Of a DNA stretch of 64,000 nucleotides, positions 11,247-62,194 are shown piece by piece (position 1 is the first letter of the stretch; each line of letters starts with the position of its first letter). Below the pieces are notes generated by a model. The model made no database searches and was not told the origin of the DNA. It worked only from the letters and a program-made list of their open reading frames with translations. A program made the position numbers and the translations under genes. Location of the stretch: contig CAVZJV010000001.1 of NCBI GenBank assembly GCA_963775685.1, positions 32,001-96,000 of the forward strand. The letters are read 5' to 3'. The stretch comes from Candidatus Bathyarchaeota archaeon. Lineage in GTDB: Archaea; Thermoproteota; Bathyarchaeia; Bathyarchaeales; Bathycorpusculaceae.

Positions 11247-11354
11247 GCAGCGTATTTTTTTTTCTTCCATTATTTTTTATTTTACGATTTTAACGCGATA
11301 TTACGAAAAATAAAAGATTAATAAATTGAAATTAGAAAAGTTGACTTTGGCAGT

Positions 11355-26096: not shown

Positions 26097-26099
26097 TTG

Positions 26100-26197: not shown

Positions 26198-26249
26198 TTG
26201 GGTAATGTTGCTTTGACTCATATTAGTTTTGCTAATAATTGCACTTTGT

Positions 26250-34715: not shown

Positions 34716-34793
34716 GGGTCCGTAGCTCAGTCAGGCTAGAGCATCGGACTTTTAATCCGAGGGTCGCGGGTTCAACTCCCGTCGGACCCGCCA
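34716..34793 (+). tRNA. tRNA-Lys(TTT), intronless, encoded CCA
   Basis: GGGTCCG/CGGACCC acceptor stem, TCGGA-CTTTTAA-TCCGA anticodon arm, GGTTCAACTCC T arm. Confidence 0.97.
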
Positions 34794-43910: not shown

Positions 43911-43949
43911 AGTAGAAGAAAAAACTTGAAAAAATCGCGGTTCTTCTTC
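43911..43949 (+). repeat. Island hairpin repeat copy
   Basis: AGTAGAAGAA-aaaac-TTGAAAAAAT-cgcgg-TTCTTCTTC. Confidence 0.65.
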
Positions 43950-43999
43950 CAACCAAACATTATCTATGGGTATACACGAAAAATCAGAATTTCGCTAAA

Positions 44000-44043
44000 G
44001 AGCTGGGATGGGAGTTGAACCTGTATATCTGGTCTGCAGTCTG
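44000..44043 (-). pseudogene. Degenerate 3' half of a tRNA-Cys(GCA)-like sequence
   Basis: Minus strand: GA-CTGCAGA-CC...AGG-TTCAACT-CCC-ATCCCAGCT (anticodon loop, T loop, acceptor 3' strand); no 5' half. Confidence 0.4.
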
Positions 44044-44053
44044 TAAGGGAGAT

Positions 44054-44449
44054 CTATTGGATGCTCTCTAATGTGGAAGCGTTTGTTGTAGGTGTTATCT
44101 TTTTGATTAATCGGGCATCTTCTGTTATTAATCTAAGATCTTTTACTTTAGCAAAATAAGCATATGAAGCGTCGTAAAAAGTAATCTTGAGTTTTATTGC
44201 TGTATCCAATATTTCCTCTTCGCTCCCCGCTACTTCTATTAGGTCCATTAAGTTTAGGATATGATTGATTGTTTTCTCCATCATTTTTGCTTCTTGCTCT
44301 GAAACTTTAGCATGTAAGACACAGTCTTTCCAAATGATGTTTCCCAATTCATATCTTGCTAACTCTATCGTGTAGTTTCCAGCCAAAAACTCGATTTTGT
44401 TTTCTTTAACGGCTCTAAAAATGGCTGATGAATCAAAAAGAAACTTCAT
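44054..44449 (-). CDS. vapC: VapC PIN-domain toxin
   Basis: FLFDSSA, YELGN, TFYDASY, LITED PIN acidic motifs. Confidence 0.9.
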   Translation of the reverse strand: MKFLFDSSAIFRAVKENKIEFLAGNYTIELARYELGNIIWKDCVLHAKVSEQEAKMMEKTINHILNLMDLIEVAGSEEEILDTAIKLKITFYDASYAYFAKVKDLRLITEDARLIKKITPTTNASTLESIQ

Positions 44450-44679
44450 CGGCTGTCCCGGTCTTTTCTAATGCTTTTCACGATGTCTTCGACACTGACC
44501 TTATCAAGTATTGGCTTTAGCTTGTCTATCTCTACTTTTAGCTCTTCCATTTCTCTTTTCTTTACTTCATCTTCAAGGGCTTTTCGCAAAATCTTGGATG
44601 GCTTGATTTTGAATTTCTGAATTTTTTCTTTAAGTTGCTTGGGGATTTTTGTAGAGACGGTTGCGGATTGCTGTACCAA
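44446..44679 (-). CDS. VapB/CcdA-like RHH antitoxin
   Basis: TVSTKIPKQLKEK...ILRKALEDEV, SIRKDRDSR; 4-bp overlap with vapC. Confidence 0.85.
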   Translation of the reverse strand: MVQQSATVSTKIPKQLKEKIQKFKIKPSKILRKALEDEVKKREMEELKVEIDKLKPILDKVSVEDIVKSIRKDRDSR

Positions 44680-44829
44680 ATTACTCTCACCAAAAATTAC
44701 TACTTTAAAGTAAGATAAAATAGTTTCCATAGAGTGTAAGAAAATTATTAATCATCTGTCGAACAGAGGTGAGAGTTGAGCTCATTAGTCCTATCCCAGA
44801 GTAGAAATTTCGCTCAGTGAAATTAACAA

Positions 44830-44871
44830 AAGAACAACAACAAACTGGAATTTTGGCGTGTTGTTGTTCTT
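44830..44871 (+). repeat. Island hairpin repeat copy with covarying arms
   Basis: AAGAACAACAAC-aaac-TGGAATTTT-ggcgt-GTTGTTGTTCTT, a perfect 12-bp inverted repeat. Confidence 0.7.
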
Positions 44872-44997
44872 CCGATAAAAACAGGTTTATTTTTAGGTCT
44901 ATCGAGCCGCAGCTTTAAGAAAATATTTTTGTTGTTCTGGTCCTCATTTTGTCTACACAACACATATATGATTTCTTAATATTCTTGCAATCACCTG

Positions 44998-45633
44998 GTG
45001 GCCGAATTGGAAAGCAATCAACAAGTCGTAAAAAAAACCATACTTAGCAAAAAATTAATCGCAATAATTATAGTGGCGGTTATAGCAATTGCAACAGTCG
45101 CCTCTACTACGGCGATTTTAACGACAGGCAACAAATCACCCAATAGCCAAATTAACACGGAGAATAGTTTGACAGATAACCAGAATAGCCCGGAATCTTG
45201 GATCAAAAAGGGAGCTTATGCAACCTATGCAGGCCAAGCTGAAATCTTATCTTTGAGCATCGCCTTTAGCGCGAGAATAGAAATAGTTGATTTCAACCAA
45301 ACTCACCTGCAAATATCCACCGACTACATCATGTCGACATCTTTCGGTGCAACAGAAAACACAACCACGATCTGGGTGAGCAGAGAAGACATGAATTTCC
45401 AACCAGAAGACCTACCACTAAACAACACGTACACTACACAAATAACCATACCGAACCTTGGAACAAGAACCTGCACCGTTTACGAATATAGCAACGAAGG
45501 AATCAGCGCAGCCTACTATGTGGACAACAGCGTCCAATGGCCAATCAAAATGGTAATGACCTCGCCAGCAGTTGAAGGACAAACCTACAACATGGATATA
45601 AACCTGGTAGATACAAACATACCCGGCCTCTAA
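44998..45633 (+). CDS. Membrane-anchored beta-rich secreted protein
   Basis: N-terminal TM helix, Asn/Ser linker, beta-strand-rich domain ending LVDTNIPGL. Confidence 0.7.
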   Translation: MAELESNQQVVKKTILSKKLIAIIIVAVIAIATVASTTAILTTGNKSPNSQINTENSLTDNQNSPESWIKKGAYATYAGQAEILSLSIAFSARIEIVDFNQTHLQISTDYIMSTSFGATENTTTIWVSREDMNFQPEDLPLNNTYTTQITIPNLGTRTCTVYEYSNEGISAAYYVDNSVQWPIKMVMTSPAVEGQTYNMDINLVDTNIPGL

Positions 45634-46039
45634 TAATTGCCGGCTATCAAATTTGTCTGGGTAATGGGTATTTGCTTAAATGAGCTTTAATTTGTCTTCT
45701 TTTTATCTCCTTAAAATCTTTGCGTCGGAGCAAAATTTTTGTGTACCAAATTGCATTTTGTATTAAAGAACTTCTTCTGAGAGCAAGAACTTCCATTACT
45801 GAGAGGTAGCATGCAAGTGTGTGTTTTTATTTTTTGTTCTTGTTGAGAGAGTAACATAGAGAGTTGGGTTTGGGGATTAAATCTTAATCTTTTTCCCTTT
45901 CGTAACTTCCTAACTACTTAACTTCTCTCCACTCCTATCTACTCCTCTTCTCACAAAATACAAAACCTAAACCTAAAAAAATAAAACTCACACACAAAGA
46001 CTATATGAATAATATCAGTTGAATAATATCAGTCAGTCA

Positions 46040-46934
46040 TCTTGTTTATTCGAGATAGTCAAAGTTCTTTTTTAGATTTTTATTTTAGAATTTGACATAT
46101 TTCTTTATTGTTCGAACATTTGTTCTATGGAAAAATGACATAAAAATTCAGCAATTTCCCAAGTTCATAAAGTATGTCGATTGTCTGTTCCCTAACTTTA
46201 ATTGTGCCGTTGTTTTAAATTTCAAAATTAAAATGTGCTATGGCATTCTTAATTTTCGATTTGCCTCATTGTTAAATAATTCAAAACCAAGTTCTTTCAA
46301 GAACGCTTCTTTAATCAGAGCATACCAATGTCTGAAATGGCTTCAAAATAACGTGCAAATCTATTTTCGAATGAATTATAAAGGTCATATCCCAGCAAAA
46401 CAAGCAAAAAACACACATAATTCATACCGTTGGAAAATCCTCCTTCTACAAGAGGCAAGTAAAATATCAGTTAAGAGAAAAGGGTATTGGCATTTCTTTC
46501 TATTGATAAAATATATGTACCGAATTTCGTTCGAATAGAGTTTTCTGGTAAAAGCGGAGCTTCTTAGAAGTAATAGAGTGACCCGTTTAGTCGCTGTTTC
46601 TCTCTTGAAGTTTCCTTGCTTCTCTTTGAATCTGTTCTAGAGCATATGCAATTAGTAAGCATAGACCGTTGTTTCCCACAAGCATTTCGCTGTCTTTTAA
46701 TGAAGTAGCCATATCGTAAAAAATATTCTCAATTTCTTCTTCTGCATCGGGTTGCAACTTTAGTAATGATAAGTCAAGGTGTGTTTCTGCAAAAGGAAAT
46801 TTCTCTTGCAGCTCTCGAAGTATTGTTCTTTGTTCGCATAACTGCCTGGTTTCTTTTATCGGCATACCTTTTCCTTTGTCAACGAGCATGTTCAAATTAA
46901 AAGTCAAATAGGTCAATAGGCTGATTTTTACCAT
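46040..46934 (-). pseudogene. Decayed gene with a HEPN-like R-N-x-x-x-H motif
   Basis: ORF 46587-46934 plus downstream fragments EAFLKELGFELFNNEANRKLR / NAIAHFNFEI*NNGTIKV. Confidence 0.45.
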
Positions 46935-46991
46935 GTATTGAACCTCATAGCAGTGTCATTCGAATCGATTATTAGTTTTTCTATCTTTGCT

Positions 46992-47156
46992 TTAGCACGA
47001 AGAATCTAAAAAATTAAGCTTCGGTTTTTCGTCCTTCAAAACTAACTTGTAACATTCACATTTAGGTTTAGTACATACTCTATCTAAAAAATATGAATGT
47101 TCACTTTTAAGATGTCCGCACGTGCACATTTCATCTTTAATTTTAGCTTTTTCCAT
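46992..47156 (-). CDS. Small Cys/His zinc-binding protein (54 aa), not in the ORF track
   Basis: MEKAKIKDEMCTCGHLKSEHSYFLDRVCTKPKCECYK... Confidence 0.6.
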   Translation of the reverse strand: MEKAKIKDEMCTCGHLKSEHSYFLDRVCTKPKCECYKLVLKDEKPKLNFLDSSC

Positions 47157-47372
47157 CAAGATTTCTCTGTGTTAAATAAACAACTTTAGCCTTGAAAAGG
47201 TTTTAGGTGTGGTTCTAATTAAATTTTGGTGCACACACACAATTTTTATTATATTTTTTTCAATAACCTATAAACCGCTAATTGCAAATAAACATTTATG
47301 GTGATAACGCTAAAATGGGTAAATAATCTTATGTTACTTTGTATTATGTGAAGTAATGTGAGGGCTGCTTCG

Positions 47373-47609
47373 ATGGTGAAAAATGTAATCGATTTAAATG
47401 AAAGGGACAGCCGAGTAATCAACATAGTTAAGGCAAAGTATGGGCTCAAAGATAAAAGCCAAGCTTTAAGCATAATTATCCAGCATTATGAAAAGTGTGA
47501 ACTTGAACCCCCGCTTAGACCCGCGTTTGAGAAGGAAATAGAGGAAACCGTTAAGAACGGCAAATTTGTCAAAGTTAAGAATTTCGCGGAAGACTACGGG
47601 CTAAAGTGA
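47373..47609 (+). CDS. DUF2683-like antitoxin, copy 1
   Basis: MVKNVIDL..VINIVKAKYGLKDKSQA...LEP.LRP; followed by a truncated toxin start. Confidence 0.75.
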   Translation: MVKNVIDLNERDSRVINIVKAKYGLKDKSQALSIIIQHYEKCELEPPLRPAFEKEIEETVKNGKFVKVKNFAEDYGLK

Positions 47610-47644
47610 TTGCTTGTGCAGCCTTGAAATTGAGGAAGAAAGAA

Positions 47645-48043
47645 ATGACAAAAGAAGATATTTACAAAGACTATGGCAAGTTCAGCGGTGTCAAAAGTAG
47701 GTCAAAAACCAAAACACAAAAACCTCCAAAGAAACTAAACCAGTGTTCCAAATGCGGCAGAGTAGGCGACGAAATGACTAAACACTCCCTCACAGGTGAA
47801 CATAAGCCACCTTTCATATGGCTGTGCAGGCAACCATGCCACGACGAAGTGCACAAGTTCGGCCTAAAAATGACAAAAGAACAAAAAGCAGCACTAAAGC
47901 GGCAGCCACCCTGCAGCATACAATTTCCCACAGAAAACAACATAGCCAATCCTTATACAAAACTGATTGAGCCTGAATCGCTGGAGGGGGAAAAATTCAA
48001 GCAGTCTTTCAAGCGAATAAATTCTGAAAATGAAGAAACGTAA
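47645..48043 (+). CDS. HNH-like zinc-binding protein
   Basis: CSKCG...TKH...LCRQPCHDEVH pattern. Confidence 0.55.
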   Translation: MTKEDIYKDYGKFSGVKSRSKTKTQKPPKKLNQCSKCGRVGDEMTKHSLTGEHKPPFIWLCRQPCHDEVHKFGLKMTKEQKAALKRQPPCSIQFPTENNIANPYTKLIEPESLEGEKFKQSFKRINSENEET

Positions 48044-48364
48044 TACTCGAGAACAAACTGTAGAAGAAGAATAAATCGTGTTTTTTCCAAGCAGCACATG
48101 TTTTTTTTCTTTCAAACTTCAGCATTGCAGTACTCTCAAGAGAAGAAGAACAACATTTGAAAAATATTGCAGATTAAAGCGTTTTTCTATCGATTGCATG
48201 CAATGTTGCAGCAACCAACAATTGGTTAACTGATAGAAGAAGAAACGTAATAGATATGGATACAGGTTTAACCCTGCTTTCGATGGGGTTAAAGAGTTAT
48301 AATTAATGAACAGTTGAAAACTGGCTGCTAACTTTTTTCTATCAGTTCATCCTTGCGTTTGTGT

Positions 48365-50250
48365 TTATGGTTGTTTGATGGTGAGGATGCGTCCATAGTT
48401 GCTGTGGACGTTGATTATTCGTGTTTCGCTTTGGGCTATGTTGCCTATGTCTTGGTATCCAGGAAGTTCATCGATGTAGTTGCCTGCAAAATCGAAGGTG
48501 AATGGCACGTTTTGTTCTTGGTCGCTAAAGTTTAATGCTATCAGGCTAAAGTTTTGGCCGTCGACACGGTGGAAAATAAGGATTCCTTTTTTTGTAGGTT
48601 GGCTTGGTCGTCATGGAAATAAGCTTCTCCTTGTCTTATTTGGGGGTTTTTTCTGCGGATTTTAATAAGGTTTCTGACGAGACCGACTGTTGATTTGCCG
48701 ATCTGATCGTAGAAGTAGTCCCAGCGTACTGGTCGGAAAAGAAGCACACGTCCCATTGATGCGGTGTCTGAGGGGTTTGGCAGGTAATAGTTTTCTGCGA
48801 ATTCTTGGCCTTGCCAAAGCAGTGGAATCCCTTTAGCCATGAGCATCCCGATTAGGTATGGTTGCAGTTTATAGAATAAGCTTCTGTTTCCCTGCCAAAT
48901 TAGCGGATCTCCCTCTACATTGCTGAAGTTGCAGATGAATCGTGAGTGGTCATGATTTTCAAAGTATTGGAGCGCAGTCTTTTTCAGAGTGTCTCCGTTG
49001 GTGGTTTGTACTCTTGGGAATTGGTCAAGGCAAAACATGAAGCCCAAATTTGTAAGTTCGTTCATGTTTCCTTTGGCGATTTTTTCGCCTGCGTTAAGGG
49101 TTTTGTCTTGCCAGGTTGTGTTTGAGTAGCTCTCTGTTAGAATTCCTTTTGGATCGTTTAGTTGTTCGGCACATTGGATAAGATTGATTTTTTCGTTATT
49201 GTAGAATCGTTGCCAATCTGGGTCATCTTTCTTTGATTTTATTAGTTGATACGTTTGGTACGTAAGTGCCGCATATTTATTTCCGGTGGGGCCATCCCAA
49301 AAATTAGGGACATTATCGTAGCGGAATCCATCTATGTGGAATTGTTTGAGCCATTGGTAGTTGACTGTGTAGAAGAAATTTTGTGTGAATGCTTTGTCGT
49401 AATTGGGAGTTTTTCCGTATTCATCGGTGCCTTTTATGAAGGGGTTGTCTTGGTACTGTAGAGCATCGTAAATGTAGAAGTAGGCAAAGTCGGCGGCTGT
49501 GTGGGCGTATACTGAGTCAACGATAACTGCTATTCCATGTTGGTGCGCTGCATCGATGAGTTTTTGCATATCTTTTCTGTTTCCAAAGCGTTCGTCCACG
49601 CCAAAGTAGCCGATGGGTAAGTAGCCCCAATCTATTGTTGCTGCAACATTGGATAGAGGCATTAGCTCTATGCAGTTTATCCCTAAGTCTGCTAAGTAAT
49701 CTAATCTGGCTATGGTTTGATCGACGCTTCCGCCAAATTCGTTAATCATTAACTCATAAATTATTAGGTCTTCTAGATCTGGCGTTTTCCAGGTGGCTTC
49801 GCTTGGACTCCATTGGTATGGCTTGTAGCCTAAGGTTATGGCTGAGAGTTTGCCTATGCCAAATTCACTGGCGCAGGGGTCGATAATCCAATCTAGCAGT
49901 TTTTGGGGGTATTTGCTTTCGTCTAGGTTTGGGTTTTCCAAACAGTATCGGTAGACGTATCGTCCATTGGTTCCCCAGACTGAATCTGGTGTAGGTTTAG
50001 CAATTGACGGTATGTCTAGACTTGTTGACCAGTAATCACCATAATCCGGATCTGTTGAATGATCCAATTCAAATTTGAGAGGCTGGATATTTTGAAGAAA
50101 CTGATCTTTCTCGTGGATAATTTTGACGAAAAGCTTGTTGCCGTCAACGGCTGATATCCATGGTAAAAAGATTCCAAAATTAACGGTTCCTATTGGTCCT
50201 TCACGAGCACCTAGTTTAGTTAATGGCAGAAGTTTCAAAAGAATCCCCAT
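48365..50250 (-). CDS. GH13 alpha-amylase-family (branching enzyme/trehalohydrolase-like) enzyme; frameshift in an A7 run near 48590
   Basis: IIYEL, IELMP, WGY, DSVYAH, DGFRYD, AE and ENHD motifs; C-terminal beta domain continues in another frame to 48365. Confidence 0.88.
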
Positions 50251-50600
50251 AAGCTAAATGGTAATTCTAGTTTTTTAACACTCCTACGTTAGGAAGATTA
50301 AGAAAAAGGGAAGCTGTTGTTTACCTTGAAATTTCACATAGAACAGCTACTTCTAAGATTATGTTTTTTTTAGCTTTCTCCTTTTAAATGCATAGGTTGC
50401 AGGCGATTTTTCTTAAAATTGTGGGACACAAAGAAGTGTCAAAAGATAGAATTCGAAAAGCTGAGCATGTTAACTACTGCACATAATGGTAGGTTCTAAA
50501 CGTGGGTAAGTTATCGGTTCTCTATTGTAAGCGATGTAATTGTTTTTATTCTCAGAGCTTCATAGGGGTAATTTGGAAACAGAAGGAGTTGAAATGAAGA

Positions 50601-51590: not shown

Positions 51591-51644
51591 CGAATATTCA
51601 CTTTTTTATTAGCCCAAGAACCTTTTTAGTTTAGAAGCTAATTT

Positions 51645-53135: not shown

Positions 53136-53737
53136 CCTCTGTTTAATCCCTATTGAATACTGGCTTTATTTGTTACTATAAAATTGTTAAATAATTTCAG
53201 CCGAAAGTTAACGTTCCAAACTATTCGCCTCATCTTTTTCTCGGTTTTTTGATTACAAAGCTATGTATGATGCGGTACAGGTTAGTACGAATATAAATTC
53301 CCAAGGCAATGGGGCTATTTTTTGGGGGCTTTTGTTCTAAAAATGGTGCCGATCCTTTGTCTGTTATTGTTGCGGTTCGTAAAGAAGGAAGCCATCTGTA
53401 GGTGGTGCAGATTGAACGCCGTTTGGGGGAGAACTGGATAAGGCTTGGGTAAAGGGGGTATCTAATCATTTGCAGGCTAAAAATGAATTTGTGCTTAGCC
53501 AAGAAAAATTGAAAGATTCAGTTAAACGTGGAGTACTTCTAACGTTACGAGATACATTTGGTAAGAATGCCTTGTCTATTCCAAATAAGTTTACCCAACT
53601 TGTTGAAAGCGTTTATAAATAAGTTTTTTCTCCGGACTTAAAAAAAGACTAACTTGCTTCGTGGGTTTAAGACCGCAGCACAACCACCTCTCCCACGCTT
53701 CAAATATTTTAGAAGAAACAAACACTTCTCGCCTAAC

Positions 53738-53788
53738 AGAAGTAGAAGTAGACCAGAAAATATTTCACTGTTCTTCTACTACCCATAA
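53738..53788 (-). repeat. Island hairpin repeat, subtype A copy 1
   Basis: AGTAGAAGTAGACCAGAAAATATTTCACTGTTCTTCTACTACCCATAA. Confidence 0.9.
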
Positions 53789-53895
53789 AGACCTCTCTTT
53801 GGGGTGGGTAAATCAACAACTTACGTTTTTCCAAACTAATCATTTCAAATTTATTAGTAAGTTTGTATCTGTTTATCATTAGTTCGGTGGGTTTG

Positions 53896-54132
53896 ATGGC
53901 TAAACCTGCGTATTTAGATGAGGACGACCTTAAACTTCTTTTTGAAACTAAACAAAAGTTAGATGAAGCTACCAAACTGATGGGTGAACTTATGGAAACC
54001 ATTGATGTTTTAAATGATCCTGAAATGATGAAAGCCCTCAATCAAGGACAAGAGGACATTAAAGCTGGCAGAATCAAAGATTTGTGGTCGCTTCTAAAGG
54101 ATGAGAAAGCGATGAAAACAAAGAACTCTTGA
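53896..54132 (+). CDS. Putative orphan antitoxin (RelB/YefM C-terminus-like)
   Basis: LMETIDVLNDPEMMKALNQGQEDIKAGRI; no toxin gene follows. Confidence 0.6.
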   Translation: MAKPAYLDEDDLKLLFETKQKLDEATKLMGELMETIDVLNDPEMMKALNQGQEDIKAGRIKDLWSLLKDEKAMKTKNS

Positions 54133-54271
54133 GTTTATTTTGAAAGATGACACTGTTGTGTAAAATTGGTTTGCTTCATTATACCATCATGATTATCTCT
54201 TTGGCCAAGTCTCCTTTTTTTGAATGTAAAAGGGGTAAGGCTTAAGAATTTCGAAAACGCTATGCAATCAT

Positions 54272-54475
54272 ATGCTACGCTATAGAGTTATAATAGAAAA
54301 AGATGAAGATGGCATGCTTGTCGCTAAAGTTCCTGACTTGCCTGGTTGTGCTACCGAGGGAAAAACAAGAGTGGAACTTATGAAAAATGTCAAGGAAGCG
54401 ATACAGGCGTACATTGAGGCGTTAAAGGAACATGGTGAGCCAGTTCCTATTGAAACGGTGCAAGTTAGTGTCTAA
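54272..54475 (+). CDS. hicB: HicB-family antitoxin
   Basis: VIIEKDEDG..VAKVPDLPGCATEGKT..E...NVKEAI. Confidence 0.92.
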   Translation: MLRYRVIIEKDEDGMLVAKVPDLPGCATEGKTRVELMKNVKEAIQAYIEALKEHGEPVPIETVQVSV

Positions 54476-54725
54476 ACTAAAGACGCTTGATTATGATGTT
54501 GTATTAAAGGCTCTCGTAAAAATCGGCTATGTTGTTAATAATCAGAGGGGTAGCCACATCGTTATGCGATTTGTAGACAAACAAAAGTACATTACTTTAT
54601 TTGGCTGTAGAAATAACGAGGTTATGGTGGTTATCCCTGCCCATAAACCTCTGGGAAAAGGTATGTTACGTACCATTATCAGGGAAATTGACCTCTCAGT
54701 TGAGGAATTCAACGAGTTTCTTTGA
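54468..54725 (+). CDS. hicA: HicA-family toxin
   Basis: QRGSH, VVIPAH, GKGMLRTIIRE; overlaps hicB. Confidence 0.88.
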   Translation: MSKLKTLDYDVVLKALVKIGYVVNNQRGSHIVMRFVDKQKYITLFGCRNNEVMVVIPAHKPLGKGMLRTIIREIDLSVEEFNEFL

Positions 54726-54831
54726 AATCTTATTCAATGGAATTGAATTATGAGGGCTCCTATCGGTTTGGGGTTAAGCGGAGGGAATCTAGTTTGTTTC
54801 TGTTAATTAGAATAATCTGGGATTAGACTGA

Positions 54832-54880
54832 AAGTAGAAGTAGACCAGAAATTTTTTCACTGTTCTTCTACTACCCATAA
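54832..54880 (-). repeat. Island hairpin repeat, subtype A copy 2
   Basis: AAGTAGAAGTAGACCAGAAATTTTTTCACTGTTCTTCTACTACCCATAA; 2 loop differences from copy 1. Confidence 0.9.
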
Positions 54881-55109
54881 AAACACCCATCTGTGGTTGG
54901 CGGTTGATTGCTGCCCATTAAAGTTGGATAAAGAAAAACTCACAATAAAAAGTTGCGTTTTAATTGATGTTGTGGGGATTCGAACCTCTACTCGATAGAG
55001 ATGTCACCGCTTGTCTTCTTTTTTTATTTGAATTACTAACTTTCTGAAGATGTGGAGAGATAGATAGAAAAAAAGTTGTAACTGGATTTAGTTTCTTTTG
55101 AAGAACAAT

Positions 55110-55715
55110 CTATCTTGTGATTTCTTTCTCTATCTTTTCAAATAGTTCTACAAAAGTCTGTTCCGGCTGAGCACCTACAATTGTATATTCATCATTTATA
55201 ATAAACGTAGGAACACCAGTAATGTTGCGTTTTTTTGCTTCAGCACAGTTATTTGCATATGTTTTTTGGAGCAAGGGGTCTTCCAACGCATTTTCAACAT
55301 CCTTTTTTGTTAAGCCAATTTTCTTTGCTAAATCTATGATGACCTCGTCATTTCCGATGTCCAGGCAGTCTTCAAAGTAGGCTTTGAATATTGTATCAGT
55401 AAATTCTTCATTTTTGCCCATTATCCGTGAATATTCACCCACTATAAGAGGTCGTCTTGAATTAGGCATCACCATAACATCACAAAAGTTCAAACCGTAC
55501 TCTCTGCCTCTATTTCTCAAATGTTCTTACATTTCATTTGTTTGAGAAATGTATTTTCTTAAATCGACGCCGCAGATGGGCGTTTCTGGATGAATTTCAA
55601 TTCCAACGTGTTCAAGCTCAATATCAAACTGATTTTTGAGTTTATCAATAATAGCTTTGCCAAGGTAACAAAAGGGGCAAATGTAATCTGAAAACATTCT
55701 AATTTTTATCTTCAT
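55110..55715 (-). pseudogene. DsbA/FrnE-family oxidoreductase with one in-frame TAA at 55527-55529
   Basis: SDYICPFC and ITGVPTFII..GAQP lie in the same frame, separated only by a single stop (NEM*EHLR). Confidence 0.85.
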
Positions 55716-55723
55716 TAAATCGC

Positions 55724-56536
55724 CTATTGACTGTCTGGTTTTTTTCCTTCTTCTGTTTGCTTAGGTAACGAGTGCGCTTCTGTTGAAAAAGCACCGACGG
55801 TTTTAATCAGTTTTAGTCCTCTTTGAGTTATGACGTAGTCTCCTTTGGATGCTTCTTGCGCCATCAGATTTGCATCAATAAGCTTCTTTAGATGAAATGC
55901 TAAGTGGCCTGCCTTTAGATCTACTGTTCTGGACAATTCTGAGAAGCTTCGTTTTCCTTCGCTAACTGAAAATAGAATCTTGAGCCGTGAATGGTTTGAG
56001 AGCGGTTCAAACAGTGAATCAATGAGAAATTGAGTGTCAATGACTTCAGGGTTCTTGGTTTTGTTACTGCCTTCAACTAATACAATTTCATGGTAGGCTC
56101 TTTTTTCACGCTTTAGCTTCTTATCAAAGTTGGAGAAACAGTTTCCGCATTGCTGACCTTTGGTCTTTTCAACCATTAACTCGTTTTCAGCTATTTTATC
56201 ATCTAAGTCTGCAAGAGCTTCTTTTGTTCCAGATTGTTTGATAACTTGTGTGTTTTCCTCTATTGTGTTTTTGTAATGCTCAAGGCATTTGTTTCTGTTT
56301 TGGCAATCTTCTTTGAGCAACGTTGCAATGTCTTGATTTAGAGATTGCGACCTGTGGCCAGCATAGACCGATAGGTGATTTTGTATAAGAGTATCTTCAA
56401 TTGCACGAAGACGTTCCTTCAAAACGGTTTCTTCTACCCTGTTCATGTCTGTTCTTAAGCCTTTAATCTCCATCTTCAACTCAGCGATTGCACCAATTAT
56501 GTAATCGTATGATGAATCCTTGCCTGTGTGAGTCAA
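55724..56536 (-). CDS. ArsR-type wHTH regulator with Cys-containing coiled-coil N-terminus
   Basis: EPLSNHSRLKIL, SFSELS, GHLAFHLKKL, YVITQRG; CxxxxxC and CxxC motifs. Confidence 0.8.
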   Translation of the reverse strand: MTHTGKDSSYDYIIGAIAELKMEIKGLRTDMNRVEETVLKERLRAIEDTLIQNHLSVYAGHRSQSLNQDIATLLKEDCQNRNKCLEHYKNTIEENTQVIKQSGTKEALADLDDKIAENELMVEKTKGQQCGNCFSNFDKKLKREKRAYHEIVLVEGSNKTKNPEVIDTQFLIDSLFEPLSNHSRLKILFSVSEGKRSFSELSRTVDLKAGHLAFHLKKLIDANLMAQEASKGDYVITQRGLKLIKTVGAFSTEAHSLPKQTEEGKKPDSQ

Positions 56537-56632
56537 ATACTGTGCTTCCCTTTCATTTGCTGAGTATATTCTACTTCCCTAAAAGTATATTAGAGTTTTG
56601 CAGTTATGCTTACATTATAGGATGTGTGAATT

Positions 56633-57031
56633 TTGGTTAGTATCCCTAAAGATGTAATGGATGTTTTAAATGCAAGTGATTCAGCGAAAATGATAGCAAC
56701 TATCGACGATAAAGGCATTCCAAACGTAGTTCCATTATGGTTTGTAGTAGTAGACCCTGAAACTATTGTGTTCGCAGAAGTTTTCATCAAGAAGACAAAA
56801 GAAAACCTTGAAAAAAACAAGCAAGTTGCTCTTGCAGTGTTCAAAGGACCAATGACAGGCTACCAACTAAAGGGAACATTCAGTGGTTTCCAAACAAGTG
56901 GCCCAATTTTCGATGACTTCGCAAAGAAGAGCATGGAAACTATGAAAATAAAAATAAAAAGTGTTGGCATAATAAAAGTCACTGAAGTCTTCTCTGCTTC
57001 GCCAGGACAAGGCAGCAAAAAACTAGCATAA
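56633..57031 (+). CDS. Pyridoxamine 5'-phosphate oxidase-like FMN-binding protein
   Basis: IATIDDKGIPNVVP, KTKENLEKN, GYQLKG, SASPG. Confidence 0.85.
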   Translation: MVSIPKDVMDVLNASDSAKMIATIDDKGIPNVVPLWFVVVDPETIVFAEVFIKKTKENLEKNKQVALAVFKGPMTGYQLKGTFSGFQTSGPIFDDFAKKSMETMKIKIKSVGIIKVTEVFSASPGQGSKKLA

Positions 57032-57290
57032 CCTTGTCAAATGCGGACTTACTTTCTTTCCCAGTTTTTTATCCTGGAAAACAAATTCCTTTGATTCAAA
57101 TCTAAGCGTTTAAGATTGGCTTATGGGCAGCAGTTGCAGTTGTTGGTGTTGAGCCATTTTTTGTGCCACTTAAAGTGTGCACTCGGAGTAAGAATGTTTT
57201 ATTGAATTAATTCAATCACTCGGATTGTTGGTATGCCCTAAATTATCTTGTGTTACTTTGTGTTATGTGAGGTAATTGGAGGCTGCTTTA

Positions 57291-57527
57291 ATGGTGAAAA
57301 ATGTTATCGATTTAAACGAAAGGGACAGCCGAGTAATCAACATAGTTAAGGCAAAGTATGGGCTTAAAGATAAAAGCCAAGCTTTAAGCATAATTATCCA
57401 GCATTATGAAAAGTGTGAGCTTGAACCTCAGCTTAGACCCGAGTTTGTGAAGGAAATAGCGGACACCGTTAAGAGGGGTAAATTTGTCAAGGTTAAGGAT
57501 TTCGCGGAAGAGTATGGACTAAAGTGA
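57291..57527 (+). CDS. DUF2683-like antitoxin, copy 2
   Basis: Near-identical to 47373-47609, including the upstream leader. Confidence 0.75.
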   Translation: MVKNVIDLNERDSRVINIVKAKYGLKDKSQALSIIIQHYEKCELEPQLRPEFVKEIADTVKRGKFVKVKDFAEEYGLK

Positions 57528-57611
57528 TTGCTTGAATAGTCTTGAAATCGAGGAAGAGGTTTCTAAAACTTTTCACAACCTGCTTCAGTTAGCTTACCCA
57601 AGACCCTCCAT

Positions 57612-58124
57612 TTACATTTTGTCTATTAATTCCATTATCTTAGCGTAGGTTTCCACATTGCAGCGCCAACCTAAAGAAATCATATCCTTAACAGCCCCTT
57701 TAGCTTGCTCTTTTAACAGTAGCCCTTCAAAAACCGCCCGTGCCAAAATGTAGGGTGTGCCCACATAGCTGATTTTGTATATTTTAGCGGTTTTTCTTGC
57801 TACTTCATCATCAATAACCGCCAATCCTTTATGCTCTTTGGCAAGCGCTAAAACCTCTGCGTCGGCGGCATGAAGCCCCTGTGTCTTGGACAATTGTGAA
57901 AGGAACAGTTTGTCTTTGGGTTTGTAAAGTTCAAAAACTCCGTTTTCGAAGAGTTTTTCTAGCGCAATTGCATCTGGAACTCCTTTTTGTTTGCCTTTAT
58001 CTACAACTTCAGTTTTCACCAGTAGAGAGGTCAACTTTTTCTCTTGAAGGTTTTCAATAATTCCGCTTAACCCTACTTTGGATAGATATATTAAAGGGGT
58101 GGAATTGAAAACTAACGGTTTCAA
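57612..58124 (-). CDS. DUF3368 PIN-like toxin
   Basis: VFNSTPLIYL, DAEVLALA, IDDEVARK, GTPYIL. Confidence 0.85.
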   Translation of the reverse strand: MKPLVFNSTPLIYLSKVGLSGIIENLQEKKLTSLLVKTEVVDKGKQKGVPDAIALEKLFENGVFELYKPKDKLFLSQLSKTQGLHAADAEVLALAKEHKGLAVIDDEVARKTAKIYKISYVGTPYILARAVFEGLLLKEQAKGAVKDMISLGWRCNVETYAKIMELIDKM

Positions 58125-58477
58125 TTTTGTTCCGCCGCTGATGCTGATGTAAATTCGTTCTCGACTTCTTCTGGATCAAACCTGACCCATTCAACGTTAT
58201 GTTGTTTTAATAGATCTGCAAATTCCCAAAGAGAGAGTTTTGCAATGTCTGCTGCTTGGGCAAAAGTGACTTTGCCTTTACTTAAGAGTTCTAAGGCGGT
58301 TTGCTTTCGCCATTCGGTTATGCCTGTTTGAAGAAGATTTCGGACAACTGTTGCTTTATCAAGTTTTTCTTTTTTTATGATTTCAGAAATTTCTTTATCT
58401 AATTCAGCTGGGACGCGAACTGCTAATGGTTTGAGTGTCAAACACCTGTCACCGTATACAATAGATGCCATTTGCAT
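58121..58477 (-). CDS. UPF0175-family antitoxin (RHH plus HTH); true start probably nearer 58440
   Basis: LAVRVP, DKATVVR, GKVTFAQAADIAKLSLWEF. Confidence 0.8.
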   Translation of the reverse strand: MQMASIVYGDRCLTLKPLAVRVPAELDKEISEIIKKEKLDKATVVRNLLQTGITEWRKQTALELLSKGKVTFAQAADIAKLSLWEFADLLKQHNVEWVRFDPEEVENEFTSASAAEQN

Positions 58478-58662
58478 ACATAAGTATTTTGCATAAAATT
58501 ATGCGATAACACGTAATTTTCTCTTTAAACTCTGTCTACATTTTTTATTAAAAATAGGTGTTAAGAGTAAAGAAGTTGTCTCAAAAAAGCTTAATCACAT
58601 AGTTTTATCAAAAGTATGTGGTTAGCCACTAAAATAATTTTCAAAGCCCACTTTTAATTGAA

Positions 58663-58706
58663 AGAAGAAGTAGACCAGAAAATATTTCACTGTTCTTCTA
58701 CTACCT
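58663..58706 (-). repeat. Island hairpin repeat, subtype A copy 3
   Basis: AGAAGAAGTAGACCAGAAAATATTTCACTGTTCTTCTACTACC. Confidence 0.9.
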
Positions 58707-58866
58707 CTATAAGCTTAGAAAATTTGGCTGGTTAAAAGAAGACAGTAACCCCGTTTGGCAATCGAGCGTACCTGATAGGCTTACATATAGAAAGTCTGTT
58801 CATTCAGAACTTGAGAACAAACTATAGAAGAAGAACGGAGTGTCAAGAAAAAATTCACTGTCTAAG

Positions 58867-58908
58867 ATGGGTAGTAGTCGTCTGGCAAGCTCTATAGACG
58901 ACTACTTC
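58867..58908 (+). repeat. Island hairpin repeat variant
   Basis: ATGGGT-AGTAGTCGTCT-ggcaagctctat-AGACGACTACT, an 11-bp perfect inverted repeat with the ATGGGTAG foot. Confidence 0.7.
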
Positions 58909-59078
58909 TAATGTTTGCCGATGTTGAAAAAGCGTGATTTCCTGCGGCAAGTATTTTTTCTTCTTTTTTCAACTTTAAGCAAATTTACTATTGGATTCAC
59001 CAGATAATGGGTAAACGAGATGTAAGGGCTTTTTCTGGATGGACCTCCGATAAGCCGTATGATATCGGCGGTACAAAA

Positions 59079-59867
59079 ATGAGTGAAGTAGTCGTTGGGT
59101 TGGATGTTCACCTGAAGAATACTCAGGTGACAGTTATGAAGAATGACTTAATTGGAGAAATAGTGAAAAAAGAAAGAGTAGGAACTAACAAAGCTGAACT
59201 GCAGAAGTCTTTAGCATCCGTTCCTAAAGGCAGTAAGGTAGCTTTGGAATCGGTTGGTTCCTGTTGGCCATGGATTGATTTTCTAGAAGAGCTTGGATAC
59301 GAAGTATTGCTTGCTAATCCAGTGAAAGTGAAGCTGCGAGCGGAAGATATTAAGAATGATAAGGTAGATAGTAGGACGTTGGCTGAATTGGTTAGGGTGA
59401 ACTGGTTGCCAACATGTTACATACCGCCAGCTGAGCTTCGTTGGCTGCGTAGTCTATTGCGTCATAGATCTTATCGAACGAGACTTTCTACCAGTGTTAA
59501 AAATAGAAGCAAATCTGAGTTTAGAAAGCGAGATATCCAGTTGGATGTTAATCTTGGAACTATTAAAGGAAGGAAAGCGGCTGGTATGCTTGATGTTTTT
59601 GAGGTTAATCAGAATATTGAACTGCTTGACTTGATTGTAAGACAAAACAAGGAAGTGGAAAAGCAGCTTTTGAAAAAGTATGGAAAGATCAAGCCTGTTG
59701 AGTTATTGACGTCTATTCCCGAGATTGGGGGTCATCTTGCATGTGTTTATAGGGACGCTTTTAAAAGGAAAGGGAAGGGTGCTGACGCGATTAAGGTTGT
59801 TGCGCGTAAGTTAGTAAATGTGGTTTGGGCTGTTTGGATGTATGAGAAAGAGTTCATGGTAAAGTAG
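59079..59867 (+). CDS. IS110 DEDD transposase/recombinase lacking the core of the C-terminal Tnp domain
   Basis: GLDVH, ALES, ANP, KNDKVDS (DEDD); SIPEIG runs directly into ...AIKVVARKL without the GLxP...SG segment. Confidence 0.88.
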   Translation: MSEVVVGLDVHLKNTQVTVMKNDLIGEIVKKERVGTNKAELQKSLASVPKGSKVALESVGSCWPWIDFLEELGYEVLLANPVKVKLRAEDIKNDKVDSRTLAELVRVNWLPTCYIPPAELRWLRSLLRHRSYRTRLSTSVKNRSKSEFRKRDIQLDVNLGTIKGRKAAGMLDVFEVNQNIELLDLIVRQNKEVEKQLLKKYGKIKPVELLTSIPEIGGHLACVYRDAFKRKGKGADAIKVVARKLVNVVWAVWMYEKEFMVK

Positions 59868-60030
59868 GACAAACAACAGGGGATGTCTTCTGTCTTCTTC
59901 TGCGGTTTGACCGCTTTCGGGTAGAGTGGAGTGTTCCTTTGTTGTTGGCTGAAGCCGATGTGCGACTTGGTTCGCTGATAGGAGAATGCTGTCTGAAATA
60001 CAGGTTTGAGTAAAAGGATTTAAGAAAGAA
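59868..60030 (+). ncRNA. Putative bridge/seekRNA
   Basis: Stem 59871-59884 / 59933-59947 encloses TCTTCTTCT (59893-59901), hairpin GCGGT-TTG-ACCGC and GGGTAGA (59919-59925), which match the two insertion-site flanks; ATAGGA (59978-59983) matches the element's right end. Confidence 0.65.
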
Positions 60031-60098
60031 ATGAGGTGAGATGGTTAGGTAGTCGGGGTCTGTTTAGAGCTGGCCTTCGTCTGGTCTTCTTACATAGG

Positions 60099-60146
60099 AG
60101 AAGAAGAAGCGTAATTTTTTCATTCTTCTTCTTTTGACGCTGATCT
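60099..60146 (+). repeat. Island hairpin repeat, subtype B (target of the IS)
   Basis: AGAAGAAGAAgcgTAATTTTTTCAtTCTTCTTCTTTTGACGCTGATCT. Confidence 0.8.
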
Positions 60147-60194
60147 TAATGTGCATAGCTTGCCTTTATAGAAGTTTAGGTGTTCGGTTTACGG

Positions 60195-61697
60195 TTAATT
60201 TGTGGTGGTTGTGAAGGTCTTCTTGTCTTTCTTGCATAGTTCATGCACAAGGTCTCTTCCCATTAGGCAAACTGTACTGATTCCAAATGTTCCTCCAGCC
60301 CATTGTCCAACCATGTAAAAATTCTGCAATCCAGGTAATGTTTTGCTAACACCCTTCTTATTTATTTCTTTAGCTAGTTCTTTAGGTGGCGGCCAAGGCT
60401 GAGCAAATCCACGATAACCGCCCGTCCAATGCTCCACAGAAACCGGTGTTACAACATCGAAAGCTTCGATTTGTTTTGTGAATCCAGGAAAACGCTTCTC
60501 TAATCTCGTAGCAACCATATCCGCTAACTGTTGCTTGTGTTCTCTGTAATGTTCTTGATTTGCTGATAGTTTTTTCCAATACTCATAGTTCGAGTCAAAA
60601 TTAATTTTGATAACACATTTGCCAACTGGTGCTAATGATTGATCAAAGTTTAATATTTCAATGTCGAGTCTATCTTTTTCTTTTTCCTCTACAGTTATTG
60701 GTTGGTCCAAAAAGAGCACCATTGCATGGGGTTCGTTCGAAAAACTTCTGTTAACTCCATACCAAATCTCAAGCCCAAAAGGTTGAGTCTTGGGACATGA
60801 ATTGTAGTAAGAGTGGATGAGTTTATTAGAATATTTTTCTTTTAGCATTCCAAATATTGTTGAATAGCCATCAGCTGCCGAAATTACTAAGTCTGCAAAA
60901 TGTTCCGATCCATCTTCAAGCACAATTCCTTTCGCTACGTCGTTTTCAATGATTATCTTCTTTACTTTTGAATTATAGCGTACTTCTCCACCGAGTTCTT
61001 TGTAGCGTTTCTCAATGTTGCGTGAAAGAGCTGCTGAACCTCCGATTGGCCATCCTGCGTCAGCTATACTTAACATCGAGAGAAAAATTATGGGCACTAT
61101 TGTAGGTACTTCTTCTATATCGTATTGAATTGTGGAGAATGCTTTTTTTAGAAATGGATCTGTGAATTTTTGGGCGTATTCTTTTAAATTAATTTTTCCA
61201 TACTTCATAAAGAAACTCATTAGTGGCAGAATTTTCAGTTTTCCGCCTACACCGCCAAACATTGCGCCAAATACATCTTGACCGCTGAATTTCCGAATTG
61301 CTTTTGTGAATTCTTCGATTAGTCTTGTATCGGCTGGTGAGAGTTCTTTCATGTGTTTTTCCAGTTTTTCGATATCTGAGTAGACTGTGAAAGCTTTTCC
61401 GTTTACGTCTTCAACTTGGACAAATTCATTAAAAGCGTAGGCGTTGGTTCCTTTTAGTGCTCCAAGTTCTTGCCATATTTTATTGTATAAGGTTCCTGTT
61501 GGTTTGGGGGAAACACCAAAGACGTTGTGAACTGCATAATCAAAATGGTAATCATTGCGTTTCCATGAAACACAGACGCCGCCGGGTTTGTTTTGCATTT
61601 CGCAGATTTGGGTTTTATATCCGTTCATTTGGCTGTAGCAGCCAGTGGATAAGCCGGCTAAGCCACCGCCTATAATTATTATGGATTTTTCTGCCAT
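60195..61697 (-). CDS. Phytoene desaturase-family FAD-dependent oxidoreductase
   Basis: IIGGGLAGL, KPGG, WPIGGS, TLPGLQNFYMVGQW. Confidence 0.85.
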   Translation of the reverse strand: MAEKSIIIIGGGLAGLSTGCYSQMNGYKTQICEMQNKPGGVCVSWKRNDYHFDYAVHNVFGVSPKPTGTLYNKIWQELGALKGTNAYAFNEFVQVEDVNGKAFTVYSDIEKLEKHMKELSPADTRLIEEFTKAIRKFSGQDVFGAMFGGVGGKLKILPLMSFFMKYGKINLKEYAQKFTDPFLKKAFSTIQYDIEEVPTIVPIIFLSMLSIADAGWPIGGSAALSRNIEKRYKELGGEVRYNSKVKKIIIENDVAKGIVLEDGSEHFADLVISAADGYSTIFGMLKEKYSNKLIHSYYNSCPKTQPFGLEIWYGVNRSFSNEPHAMVLFLDQPITVEEKEKDRLDIEILNFDQSLAPVGKCVIKINFDSNYEYWKKLSANQEHYREHKQQLADMVATRLEKRFPGFTKQIEAFDVVTPVSVEHWTGGYRGFAQPWPPPKELAKEINKKGVSKTLPGLQNFYMVGQWAGGTFGISTVCLMGRDLVHELCKKDKKTFTTTTN

Positions 61698-61813
61698 TGA
61701 AGTCCACCCAGAACATTATTGCTAATTACAAAAGTCGCAATTAAACTTTAACAAAAAGGGAACCTTAGCTCAATAACTTGTTACATTGTTTGAATTTTAC
61801 ATTTTTTAATTTG

Positions 61814-61857
61814 GAAGTAGTTGTCGAAGCTGAAAATTTCAACTAGACTGCTACTTC
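61814..61857 (+). repeat. Island hairpin repeat variant
   Basis: GAAGTAGTTGTC-gaagc-TGAAAATTTCA-acta-GACTGCTACTTC. Confidence 0.7.
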
Positions 61858-61876
61858 TCTTTATTTGAAGAACTTT

Positions 61877-62194
61877 TTACTGATTACCTTTGCAATGTGT
61901 TTCAAAATGACTTGTTAACGAGCAGAAGAAGACTAAATTTTTCAATCTTCTTCTTCTTTTGACACCTGATCTATTGGCGCACATATTTATTTTAGCAAAG
62001 TCAAGGTAGAAGTTGTTGTTCACCTGAAATTTCAATCTTTCTGGGGCAAACTTTTCACGGTATTTCGCGTAAGCCCTTTTGCGGGCAAACAACCAAATGG
62101 AAACGTTGCTGAAGGATATTCCTTCAACTTTGATTTCTTCTTGATTATTGTAATCTTCAAAGAGAATCTTGTAATCTAGTTTGGGGTAAGACAT
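61877..62194 (-). pseudogene. 5' fragment of an unknown gene that runs out into a hairpin repeat
   Basis: About 70 protein-like codons, then VKRRRRLKNL encoded by the repeat itself. Confidence 0.45.
61924..61972 (+). repeat. Island hairpin repeat, subtype B copy 2
   Basis: AGAAGAAGAcTAAATTTTTCAaTCTTCTTCTTCTTTTGACACCTGATCT; shares its flank with the 60099 copy. Confidence 0.8.

Follow-up and report, generated by a model that had tools for sequence, protein, structure and literature searches.

REP-like hairpin repeats in a genus of soil Bathyarchaeia are insertion targets of IS110-family elements and recur in a putative viral small-terminase gene

The repetitive extragenic palindromes (REPs) of bacteria lie behind genes and sometimes inside them, with or without a RAYT transposase (PMC3733652), and REP-like palindromes have also been reported in archaeal genomes (PMC12306157). 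Insertion sequences (IS) of the IS110 family insert into REP sequences in Pseudomonas, and IS110 elements have been described in REPs or in conserved intergenic repeats (PMC12288879, 10.64898/2026.03.19.712850 for both). A different kind of cis element is the packaging (pac) site of P22, an asymmetric 22-bp sequence within its own gene for the small terminase subunit, TerS (PMC9611059); chromosomal pseudo-pac sites drive transduction (PMC10996546). For the viruses of Bathyarchaeia, the excerpted text of one account mentions a large terminase and no hairpin (PMC10848311). In this study we analyse a family of hairpin repeats in a 64,000-nt stretch (the window, G000:C1:32001-96000) of a Candidatus Bathyarchaeota genome, G000, of 3.06 Mb and 14 contigs. 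We read the window copies, with a probability of about one half, as chromosomal solo members of a family of REP-like, structure-maintained palindromes that serve as hot spots of insertion and rearrangement. In the literature searched, we came across neither a description of this repeat nor one of a hairpin within the terS genes of archaea. Relatives' genomes are denoted G001, G002, G005, G007, G010, G012, G023, G068, G075, G079 and so on, with C for a contig and L for an examined locus.

The initial annotation had listed nine copies in the window, and all nine are indeed inverted repeats. Eight of them match R1, a covariance model with an 11-bp stem whose seed comprises these eight (A–E and G–I) and six further copies located elsewhere in G000 by an exact-stem scan (seed consensus TAGAAGAAGAAGA-TTGAAAAATTT-GCGC-TTCTTCTTCT). 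The ninth, F, has an 11-bp stem without mismatches and belongs to a sister subtype, GTAGTC, which is found elsewhere too. The nine copies and one truncated relative are given below, with z for folding relative to shuffled sequences.

43911..43950, plus strand: hairpin A, GAA-type arms, loop with TTGAAAAAAT, decayed; R1 match 43906-43958, 42.8 bits; fold z −0.5
44830..44871, plus strand: hairpin B, CAA-type arms, 13-bp perfect stem; R1 match 44823-44875, 42.7 bits; fold z −3.1
48140..48175, plus strand: truncated copy, 5′ arm and loop (TTTGAAAAATATTGC) without the 3′ arm; R1 match 48136-48196, 15.4 bits, E 0.68
53738..53786, minus strand: hairpin C, GTAG-GAA-type arms, ATGGGTAG lead; R1 match 53736-53788, 58.7 bits; fold z −2.2
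54832..54878, minus strand: hairpin D, a near-identical and co-oriented counterpart of C; R1 match 54828-54880, 58.5 bits
58663..58705, minus strand: hairpin E, C/D subtype, partly decayed; R1 match 58658-58710, 54.6 bits; fold z −0.7
58867..58915, plus strand: hairpin F, GTAGTC-type arms, 11-bp perfect stem, ATGGGTAG lead; no R1 match; fold z −5.1
60099..60132, minus strand: hairpin G, (GAA)3 arms, 10-bp perfect stem, target of the IS110 element ISa; R1 match 60091-60143, 52.6 bits; fold z −3.6
61814..61860, plus strand: hairpin H, GTAGTT-type arms; R1 match 61808-61860, 40.7 bits; fold z −3.5
61924..61957, minus strand: hairpin I, (GAA)3 arms; R1 match 61913-61965, 50.5 bits; fold z −2.3

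Being seed members, the eight copies match R1 by construction (40.7–58.7 bits, E 1e-7 to 1e-11); independent support for the model comes from the non-seed copies in G000 and in 24 other genomes. As single-stranded DNA, seven of the nine fold better than shuffled sequences (z −2.2 to −5.1), and A and E do not (−0.5 and −0.7), so these two are taken to be decayed copies. The oriented loop core TGAAAWWWT, noted initially for most copies, is present in seven of nine and missing from B and F, and GTAG is found in six of nine, within the paired arm. The common flanks were recovered as well, the ATGGGTAG lead at C, D and F, and TTTTGAC..TGATCT at G and I, which share an orientation. R1 runs on the plus strand at A, B and H and on the minus strand at C, D, E, G and I. 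Orthologues of A are present in G012, G023 and G001, those of B directly adjoin A in G023:C5 and G001:C1, and H together with ~45 nt of flank is also found in G010 and G023. C is the left member of a direct-repeat pair with D, which lies between the convergent ends of the HicA and DsbA genes.

Half or degenerate copies had also been proposed, to which R1 lends little weight. Besides the truncated copy at 48140 (E 0.68), the degenerate place near 48061 (48057-48118) scores 15.0 bits with E 0.84, and 58825 reads as a 5′ arm alone. At 58825-58866 this lone arm, TAGAAGAAGAAC, is followed by ACGGAGTGTCAAGAAAAAATTC, a sequence similar to that with which ISa begins on its left side (ACGGGATGTAAAGACTTTTTCT) and thus perhaps the remnant of a solo IS end within a hairpin. 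A stretch of ~190 nt around F (58777-58966) recurs at ~10 places in G001, G010, G012 and G023 without a neighbouring IS110 gene, and may be a separate small repeat element. Bases 1-34,700 are free of copies, as first stated, the best R1 score there being 15.7 bits (E 0.57, at 11304).

On either strand, the 35–50-nt unit reads as a purine-rich triplet arm, an A/T-rich loop and a pyrimidine arm. Pairing was counted in 88 aligned rows, namely both strands of 55 places fitted to R1, a fit that itself favours structure: 92% of the cells pair, compared with 80% in shuffles, and double changes occur in 9 of 11 pairs, in agreement with the compensatory arm changes described at the outset. Columns 13 and 68 pair as GC in 67 rows and as CG in 21, with none unpaired, and such flips between G-C and C-G are frequent in the arms. 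When the partner is shifted by three columns the pairing is still 84–87%, in keeping with the triplet periodicity of the arms. Since the arms vary and yet remain complementary, it is the hairpin itself that is kept, both in the aligned rows and in the linkers of the terS genes discussed below; the proposal that these sites are maintained as hairpins thus holds.

A whole-genome search of G000 with R1, in which 150 of 2,052 first-look candidates were scored and both strands counted, gave 48 matches at E ≤ 10, amounting to 19 distinct places at E ≤ 0.01. These lie at seven loci, with eight of the places in the window and the remainder on C14 at 554-566 kb, 748 kb, 1,070 kb, 2,035 kb, 2,210 kb and 2,296 kb. 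The model-free stem scan of G000 returned 42 candidates, of which 23 were of family type and fell at the same seven loci (a loose setting, yielding 409 purine-arm hairpins, was too noisy to use). The family had been described as confined to the plastic region; this is true within the window but not genome-wide, where six other loci, a conserved spacer between core genes and a virus gene also hold copies. The location between small accessory modules is, in contrast, supported. The seven loci contain toxin–antitoxin (TA) pairs (HicAB, UPF0175/DUF3368-PIN, MazE and PIN), an ABC-3C defence set, methyltransferase paralogues and a provirus remnant, and tyrosine recombinases are found near one of the hairpin clusters.

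Among 60 other genomes surveyed with R1, matches at E ≤ 0.001 were found in 24 of 36 congeners (1 to 47 each), whereas of 24 genomes that represent 11 other families of the order only one had any. An exact (GAA)3 pattern searched in ~185,000 species genomes was found at at least 80 loci, and 67 of those listed are Bathyarchaeota/Bathyarchaeia records. From these genome surveys, the repeat family appears to occur almost exclusively in a single genus of soil archaea and in the head-tailed viruses that belong to it. Rfam at gathering scores returned a tRNA and a thiamine pyrophosphate (TPP) riboswitch from the window and nothing else, and at E ≤ 1 no match on the hairpins between 43 and 63 kb. 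The TPP riboswitch match (26087-26200, minus strand) scores 55.2 bits against a gathering score of 54.3, in an apparently archaeal genome.

The clearest use of these hairpins is by IS110-family elements, for which they are a specific insertion target in two lineages. The first lineage, ISa, is represented in the window by the sole IS110 transposase of G000 (one match).

59007..59014, plus strand: displaced 5′ lead of hairpin G, ATGGGTAA, severed from G by ISa as seen from the junctions of four ISa copies
59015..60098, plus strand: ISa, IS110-family element (Pfam DEDD_Tnp_IS110, 4e-17), inserted where the 5′ arm of hairpin G begins

The body of ISa is common to three copies in G023 (on C7, C1 and C5), and the homology begins at 59015. 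In all four copies the left flank ends in a hairpin lead (ATGGGTAA, TTAAAAG, TTGAAAG and GGTAGAAG), and the right end, ..ACATAGG, stands directly before AGAAGAAG-loop-CTTCTTCTT. All four share one insertion point, where the 5′ arm begins, and one orientation, and the copy on G023:C1 splits a terS gene at its hairpin. Both copies of the second lineage, ISb, interrupt the 3′ arm of a CAA-type hairpin (TGTTGT|TGATGGTATGGGAAG), one in a terS gene of G005 and the other in G023:C5. IS110 genes occur in 24 of 61 genomes, and none was found in the hairpin-rich G010 and G012; IS110 thus uses the hairpins and does not explain them, and it was rejected as the mobiliser of the family.

In addition to the IS110 elements, small gene modules differ between species right beside the hairpins. 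Two of them lie in the window.

44054..44730, minus strand: vapC-like and vapB-like pair between hairpins A and B, by open reading frame (ORF) reading, without a Pfam family at E ≤ 0.001
53863..54725, plus strand: 89-aa ORF, HicB and HicA between hairpins C and D (Pfam HicB_lk_antitox 3e-12, HicA_toxin 4e-10)

Hairpins A and B are 879 nt apart in G000, with vapBC between them, versus 22 nt in G023:C5 and 24 nt in G001:C1, where vapBC is missing. The same pair is found elsewhere in G023:C10, G012:C6 and G007 at 76–93% identity, and in the first two of these it adjoins other hairpins. A distance of 1,094 nt separates the direct-repeat units C and D, each consisting of the hairpin and ~40 nt; with the same flanks, G001:C1 has one unit and no HicAB block. 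This pattern fits either recombinational insertion at a unit or deletion between the repeats.

A third case is the spacer that separates a radical-SAM gene from one for diphthamide synthase (rSAM|dph). In five species this spacer measures 106–376 nt and holds one to three hairpins (one in G023, a single truncated one in G010, two in G079, and three each in G068 and G075). G000 has 1,489 extra nt there, and the hairpin at their end adjoins the resident one; in G012, ~3.1 kb of additional sequence likewise borders on the resident hairpin, and the spacer carries four hairpins. Parts of the 1.49-kb block (L010:4544-4608 and 4896-4964, in G000:C14:2034544-2034964) are short repeats for which the genus yields dozens of matches. 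A comparison of the rSAM|dph, A/B and C/D spacers revealed no target-site duplication and no clean empty site, the rSAM|dph alignments being too diverged.

Such modules bear on the proposal of the initial annotation that the repeats are recombination sites of a cassette system, attC-like in function, with its recombinase encoded elsewhere. In its present form this proposal would have circular modules with one hairpin each inserted at chromosomal hairpins, maybe by an IS110-type bridge recombinase acting in trans. The direct repeats that bound HicAB, with a single unit in G001, are the pattern of a Campbell-type insertion; G and I have common flanks and orientation around an FAD-oxidoreductase gene; vapBC stands beside different hairpins in G000, G023:C10 and G012:C6; and IS110 recombinases demonstrably recombine at the hairpins, with circular intermediates enabling modular transposition reported for ISPpu9 (PMC12288879). 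However, vapBC lies between two different pre-existing hairpins with no duplicated one, only one side of the 1.49-kb block is marked by a hairpin, and the hairpin-rich G010 and G012 have no IS110. The intervening genes are not co-oriented but lie on both strands, and the attC core GTTRRRY is missing within 20 nt of all nine copies, two features that had been recognized from the start.

The family does not form an integron. The best match to the integron integrase IntI (TIGR02249) is 45 bits versus a cut-off of 265, and none of the 20 tyrosine-recombinase (PF00589) matches of G000 is on the contig of the window, C1. Only the IS110 family was seen to use the hairpins, as insertion targets. We consider a cassette system very unlikely. 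A link to HUH/RAYT transposases, also suggested, fared no better: the Y1/RAYT family PF01797 has no match in G000 and does not correlate with the hairpins among the congeners. Of 61 genomes, 22 have Y1, with numbers unrelated or, if anything, opposite to those of the hairpins, since G000, G001, G010 and G012 have 22–37 hairpin matches and no Y1, and G002 has ten Y1 matches and one hairpin match. Palindrome-associated or miniature inverted-repeat transposable elements (PATE/MITE) derived from IS200/IS605 were likewise rejected, as there is no Y1, one sub-threshold TnpB match is all that G000 contains, and neither a duplication nor a clean empty site was found in the spacers compared.

The position of the hairpins relative to genes was surveyed at 55 distinct places in 30 genomes by a crude ORF call (≥90 aa), which gave 14 convergent, 14 tandem and 6 divergent places, 13 within an open frame and 8 at locus edges. 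Most of the 13 in-frame places are spurious read-through frames, those at L008, L019, L032 and L028 being genuine terS genes by reading. Accordingly, 28 of the 34 classifiable intergenic places (the convergent and tandem ones) stand behind at least one gene. Solo copies are found in spacers alone or as tandem sets of 1–4, and their number per spacer varies between species. This extragenic, clustered placement, mostly behind genes, is that of REPs, and the likeness to REP elements drawn by the initial annotation is supported.

The same placement could be read as that of plain two-way terminators, or protectors of RNA 3′ ends, that travel with accessory genes. On both strands the unit gives a purine arm, a loop and a C/U-rich arm, often running into TTTT, and six species retain hairpins in the spacer where rSAM and dph converge. 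An even spread over the ends of core genes, named in the initial annotation as a refuting condition for its own reading, was, however, not observed, with 19 places at E ≤ 0.01 in 3.06 Mb and eight of these in the window; occurrence at only 19 places (23 stems in the scan) and seven loci means that the hairpin is not a general terminator. Some 19–30 places would serve few of ~3,000 genes, 6 of the 34 places lie between divergent starts, a terminator has no need of the oriented loop core conserved in seven of nine copies, and a location in the middle of terS would be odd. Moreover, transcription termination in archaea is usually attributed to oligo-T tracts with no hairpin. On balance, a terminator or protector role as the whole explanation is highly improbable.

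One copy of the family, at C14:748730, is within a conserved 150-aa ORF (P0001) whose homologues are present in 31 of 61 genomes, in multiple copies, as many as 15 matches in a single genome. The gene stands directly upstream of that for the terminase large subunit, terL, at 26 of 30 loci (phrog_2, E 2e-28 by PHROGs). The AlphaFold model of P0001 (mean predicted local distance difference test score 80) shows a three-helix helix-turn-helix (HTH), a low-confidence linker at residues 51–70 and long helices. Because of this position and architecture (HTH plus coiled coil), we call the gene terS, that is, a putative small-terminase-like gene. P0001 belongs to no PHROG family; Pfam gives a weak GcrA-like HTH in 9 of 26 members and no more; and Foldseek against PDB and BFVD found nothing at E ≤ 0.001, the small terminases of G20C and P74-26 appearing at E 0.36–0.72.

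At 17 of the 30 loci, among them those of all 14 closest homologues, R1 finds the hairpin in the terS linker, and at least nine of the R1 places in the genus survey fall, by coordinates, in TerS matches. The linker DNA of one terS clade folds strongly in 16 of 16 cases (minimum free energy −14 to −30 kcal/mol), and that of the other group weakly in 10 of 10 (−1.7 to −13, z near 0). In a TerS tree built without the linker columns, the hairpin and hairpin-free groups form a single split with support 97/98; L073 had been labelled a hairpin member before the tree was made, from its VV...TTT peptide, and later linker folding agreed. The hairpin-free paralogues have a linker shorter by ~12 residues.

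The viruses give the same picture. In 41 IMG/VR contigs or loci encoding TerS relatives (231 kb), R1 matches 28 loci, always in the terS linker and nowhere else, and in four 40-kb provirus neighbourhoods all R1 matches are likewise in the terS linker. Of the 41, four were missed by the motif search and three are duplicates, leaving 34 distinct terS sequences, of which 33 show a long linker stem in RNAfold; in the remaining one, L138, the arms are present and the minimum-energy fold pairs other bases. The hairpin is in frame throughout, and the peptides co-vary with the arms (KEEED..SSSS, KEQQQ..CCCS, EVVEQ..CSTTS, EVVVG..PTTTS and RVVVS..ITTR). The paired residue changes (E/S, Q/C and V/T) thus indicate selection, or a copying mechanism, that acts on base pairing and not on residues.

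The solo copies mirror the terS subtypes, L007:8857 and the terS of L070 having an identical 18-nt lead and arm. Descent of the window copies from terS was nevertheless rejected, as tblastn with 26 TerS homologues found hairpin-encoded peptides alone and no flanking similarity. In L027 (G002:C2:17424-17769), L062 and L074, a frame change or stop in terS falls exactly at the hairpin; these may be pseudogenes, or else the palindrome may have caused assembly slips or the genes may be recoded. At L008:4990-5029 (G000:C14:748990-749029), terS is followed by the first ~15–53 codons of terL and then by a convergent surface-protein gene; with terL cut so short, this locus is a provirus remnant.

The terS copy needs an explanation of its own, and a packaging or other cis site is the most attractive. 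As a full account, the terS hairpin would be the pac site and the solo copies pseudo-pac, satellite or decoy sites, from which packaging might also begin; TA and defence modules beside them might be preferentially transduced, or the terminase might be diverted as a defence, with IS110 exploiting the same sites. Precedent exists in the P22 pac site inside its TerS gene (PMC9611059) and in transduction driven by pseudo-pac sites (PMC10996546). A single cis site in or next to terS is what the viral loci and the proviruses have, with TerS assigned by position. The gene order upstream of terL, the stems in 16 of 16 and 33 of 34 linkers, the single well-supported split, one linker-bound copy per virus, the matching solo subtypes and the EEE/SSS, QQQ/CCC and VV/TT changes that keep the pairing can all be cited in favour. 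To our knowledge, known pac sites are not hairpins. Other points tell against it too: TerS is identified by position and architecture, with no PHROG or fold match at E ≤ 0.001; solo copies are stable in a core-gene spacer of at least six species, which is hard to reconcile with harmful pseudo-pac sites; and one R1 match per 40 kb is also approximately the chromosomal density. As judged from sequence comparisons, the packaging account of the whole family seems unlikely.

Taken together, we see a hairpin that is kept, copies that vary from spacer to spacer, two IS110 lineages at fixed points, and TA or other small blocks that differ beside the hairpins. According to the preferred reading, REP-like palindromes that are hot spots of insertion and rearrangement, the hairpins would act as landing pads and breakpoints, which we propose as the cause of the pile-up of accessory modules around them. 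IS110 elements may find the hairpins through pairing of a guide RNA with the arm, and the other insertions could stem from recombination at the palindromes or from replication trouble in them. When transcribed, the unit would form a two-way 3′-end hairpin followed by a U/C-rich run. Spread of the family might occur through an activity in trans, or by exchange with viral copies. The interpretation offered in the initial annotation is partly supported.

A number of observations weigh against this reading. No dedicated transposase or integrase for the family was found in G000, where PF01797 has 0 matches, nor was IS110 found in the hairpin-rich G010 and G012, and the family has few copies by REP standards. 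Precise presence or absence of a single copy, accompanied by target duplication, was looked for and not found. The borders of modules must fall in spacers, which is where the hairpins are, and their placement is thus partly trivial. Of ~80 ends of long alignment blocks only 8 lie ≤30 nt from a hairpin, versus ~3.6 expected, in a count over blocks that are not independent of each other. For C and D, a deletion in G001 by way of the direct repeats would explain the pattern just as well. Finally, the fixed in-frame copy in 16 of 26 proviral terS genes and in nearly all viral ones points to a specific function, for which a selfish repeat does not account.

If the reading is right, the family provides a tractable archaeal counterpart of REPs, with tandem sets, filled and empty slots and exact IS110 insertion points, and the link between palindromic repeats and the turnover of accessory genes becomes testable in archaea. 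The viral copy would be an unusually clean case of selection on a hairpin overriding protein sequence across a gene clade, as well as a first concrete candidate cis element, for packaging or otherwise, in Bathyarchaeia viruses, which are known only from metagenomes. Should RNA pairing to the arms guide IS110, the hairpins would offer recombinases of this class natural targets in archaea.

Some further features of the variable region accompany the hairpins, beginning with a tRNA gene at its start.

34716..34793, plus strand: tRNA-Lys(UUU), start of the variable region

Att repeats of this tRNA-Lys were searched for downstream, and none were found. Beside the vapBC and HicAB modules, at 44005-44025 and 54965-55010, there are stretches like the 3′ half of a tRNA, with T-arm-like GGTTCAACTCCC / GGTTCGAATCCCC on the opposite strand; each is unique in G000, and they may be leftover att sites of an integrase. 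A DsbA-like thioredoxin gene occupies two adjacent minus-strand ORFs, 55110-55520 and 55527-55715, and since its N-terminal part covers positions 2–53 of the profile and its C-terminal part 75–189, it is probably a broken gene. Two paralogous genes for 83-aa DUF2683 proteins lie on the plus strand at 47358-47609 and 57276-57527, and a third relative, in G001:C1, is located between two hairpins next to a small toxin-like ORF.

How, then, does the family compare with described systems? It is closest to the REP and bacterial interspersed mosaic elements, GTAG- and CGTC-tagged (PMC3733652, PMC2817692), with which it shares short imperfect palindromes kept as stem-loops, lineage-specific subfamilies, single or tandem copies in spacers mostly behind genes, occasional in-frame copies and use as IS targets. 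The CGTC class of REPs resembles it also in having no dedicated transposase (PMC3733652). It differs in the archaeal host, in copy numbers in the tens, in A/T-rich triplet arms (GAA, CAA, GTA) instead of G+C-rich stems, in loops of 12–20 nt with a conserved core, in the lack of a link to RAYT, and in one copy fixed in a virus gene. The GTAG of six of the nine window copies lies inside the paired arm and may or may not correspond to the unpaired GTAG tag of REPs. The IS110 elements of REPs (ISPpu9, ISPpu10 and IS621; PMC12288879, 10.64898/2026.03.19.712850, PMC11208160) are matched by orientation-specific insertion at a fixed point, in 4 of 4 ISa and 2 of 2 ISb copies; unlike them, the present ones have archaeal hosts, fall into two lineages on different arm subtypes and include an insertion that interrupts viral terS, and no bridge RNA was identified, Rfam having given nothing.

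With integrons, the family has in common structure-defined hairpins between small modules, often of TA type, and differs in the absence of IntI, of the R′/R″ core, of an array next to an integrase and of co-oriented genes; RYYYAAC is found within 20 nt of one of the nine copies. In addition, attC sites are much longer than these hairpins. The viral copy recalls the P22 pac site in being a cis element in coding sequence upstream of terL, one per virus, with look-alikes in the host chromosome (PMC9611059, PMC10996546), while the P22 site is asymmetric, 22 bp long and not a hairpin, and the TerS considered here is assigned by position. In-frame palindromes that encode a short peptide at a tolerant site are familiar from the Rickettsia palindromic elements and intragenic REPs (PMC3733652). 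Here, by contrast, one site is occupied across a clade of a virus gene, down to ~35–45% protein identity, and the co-varying terS arms show a continued constraint on the stem.

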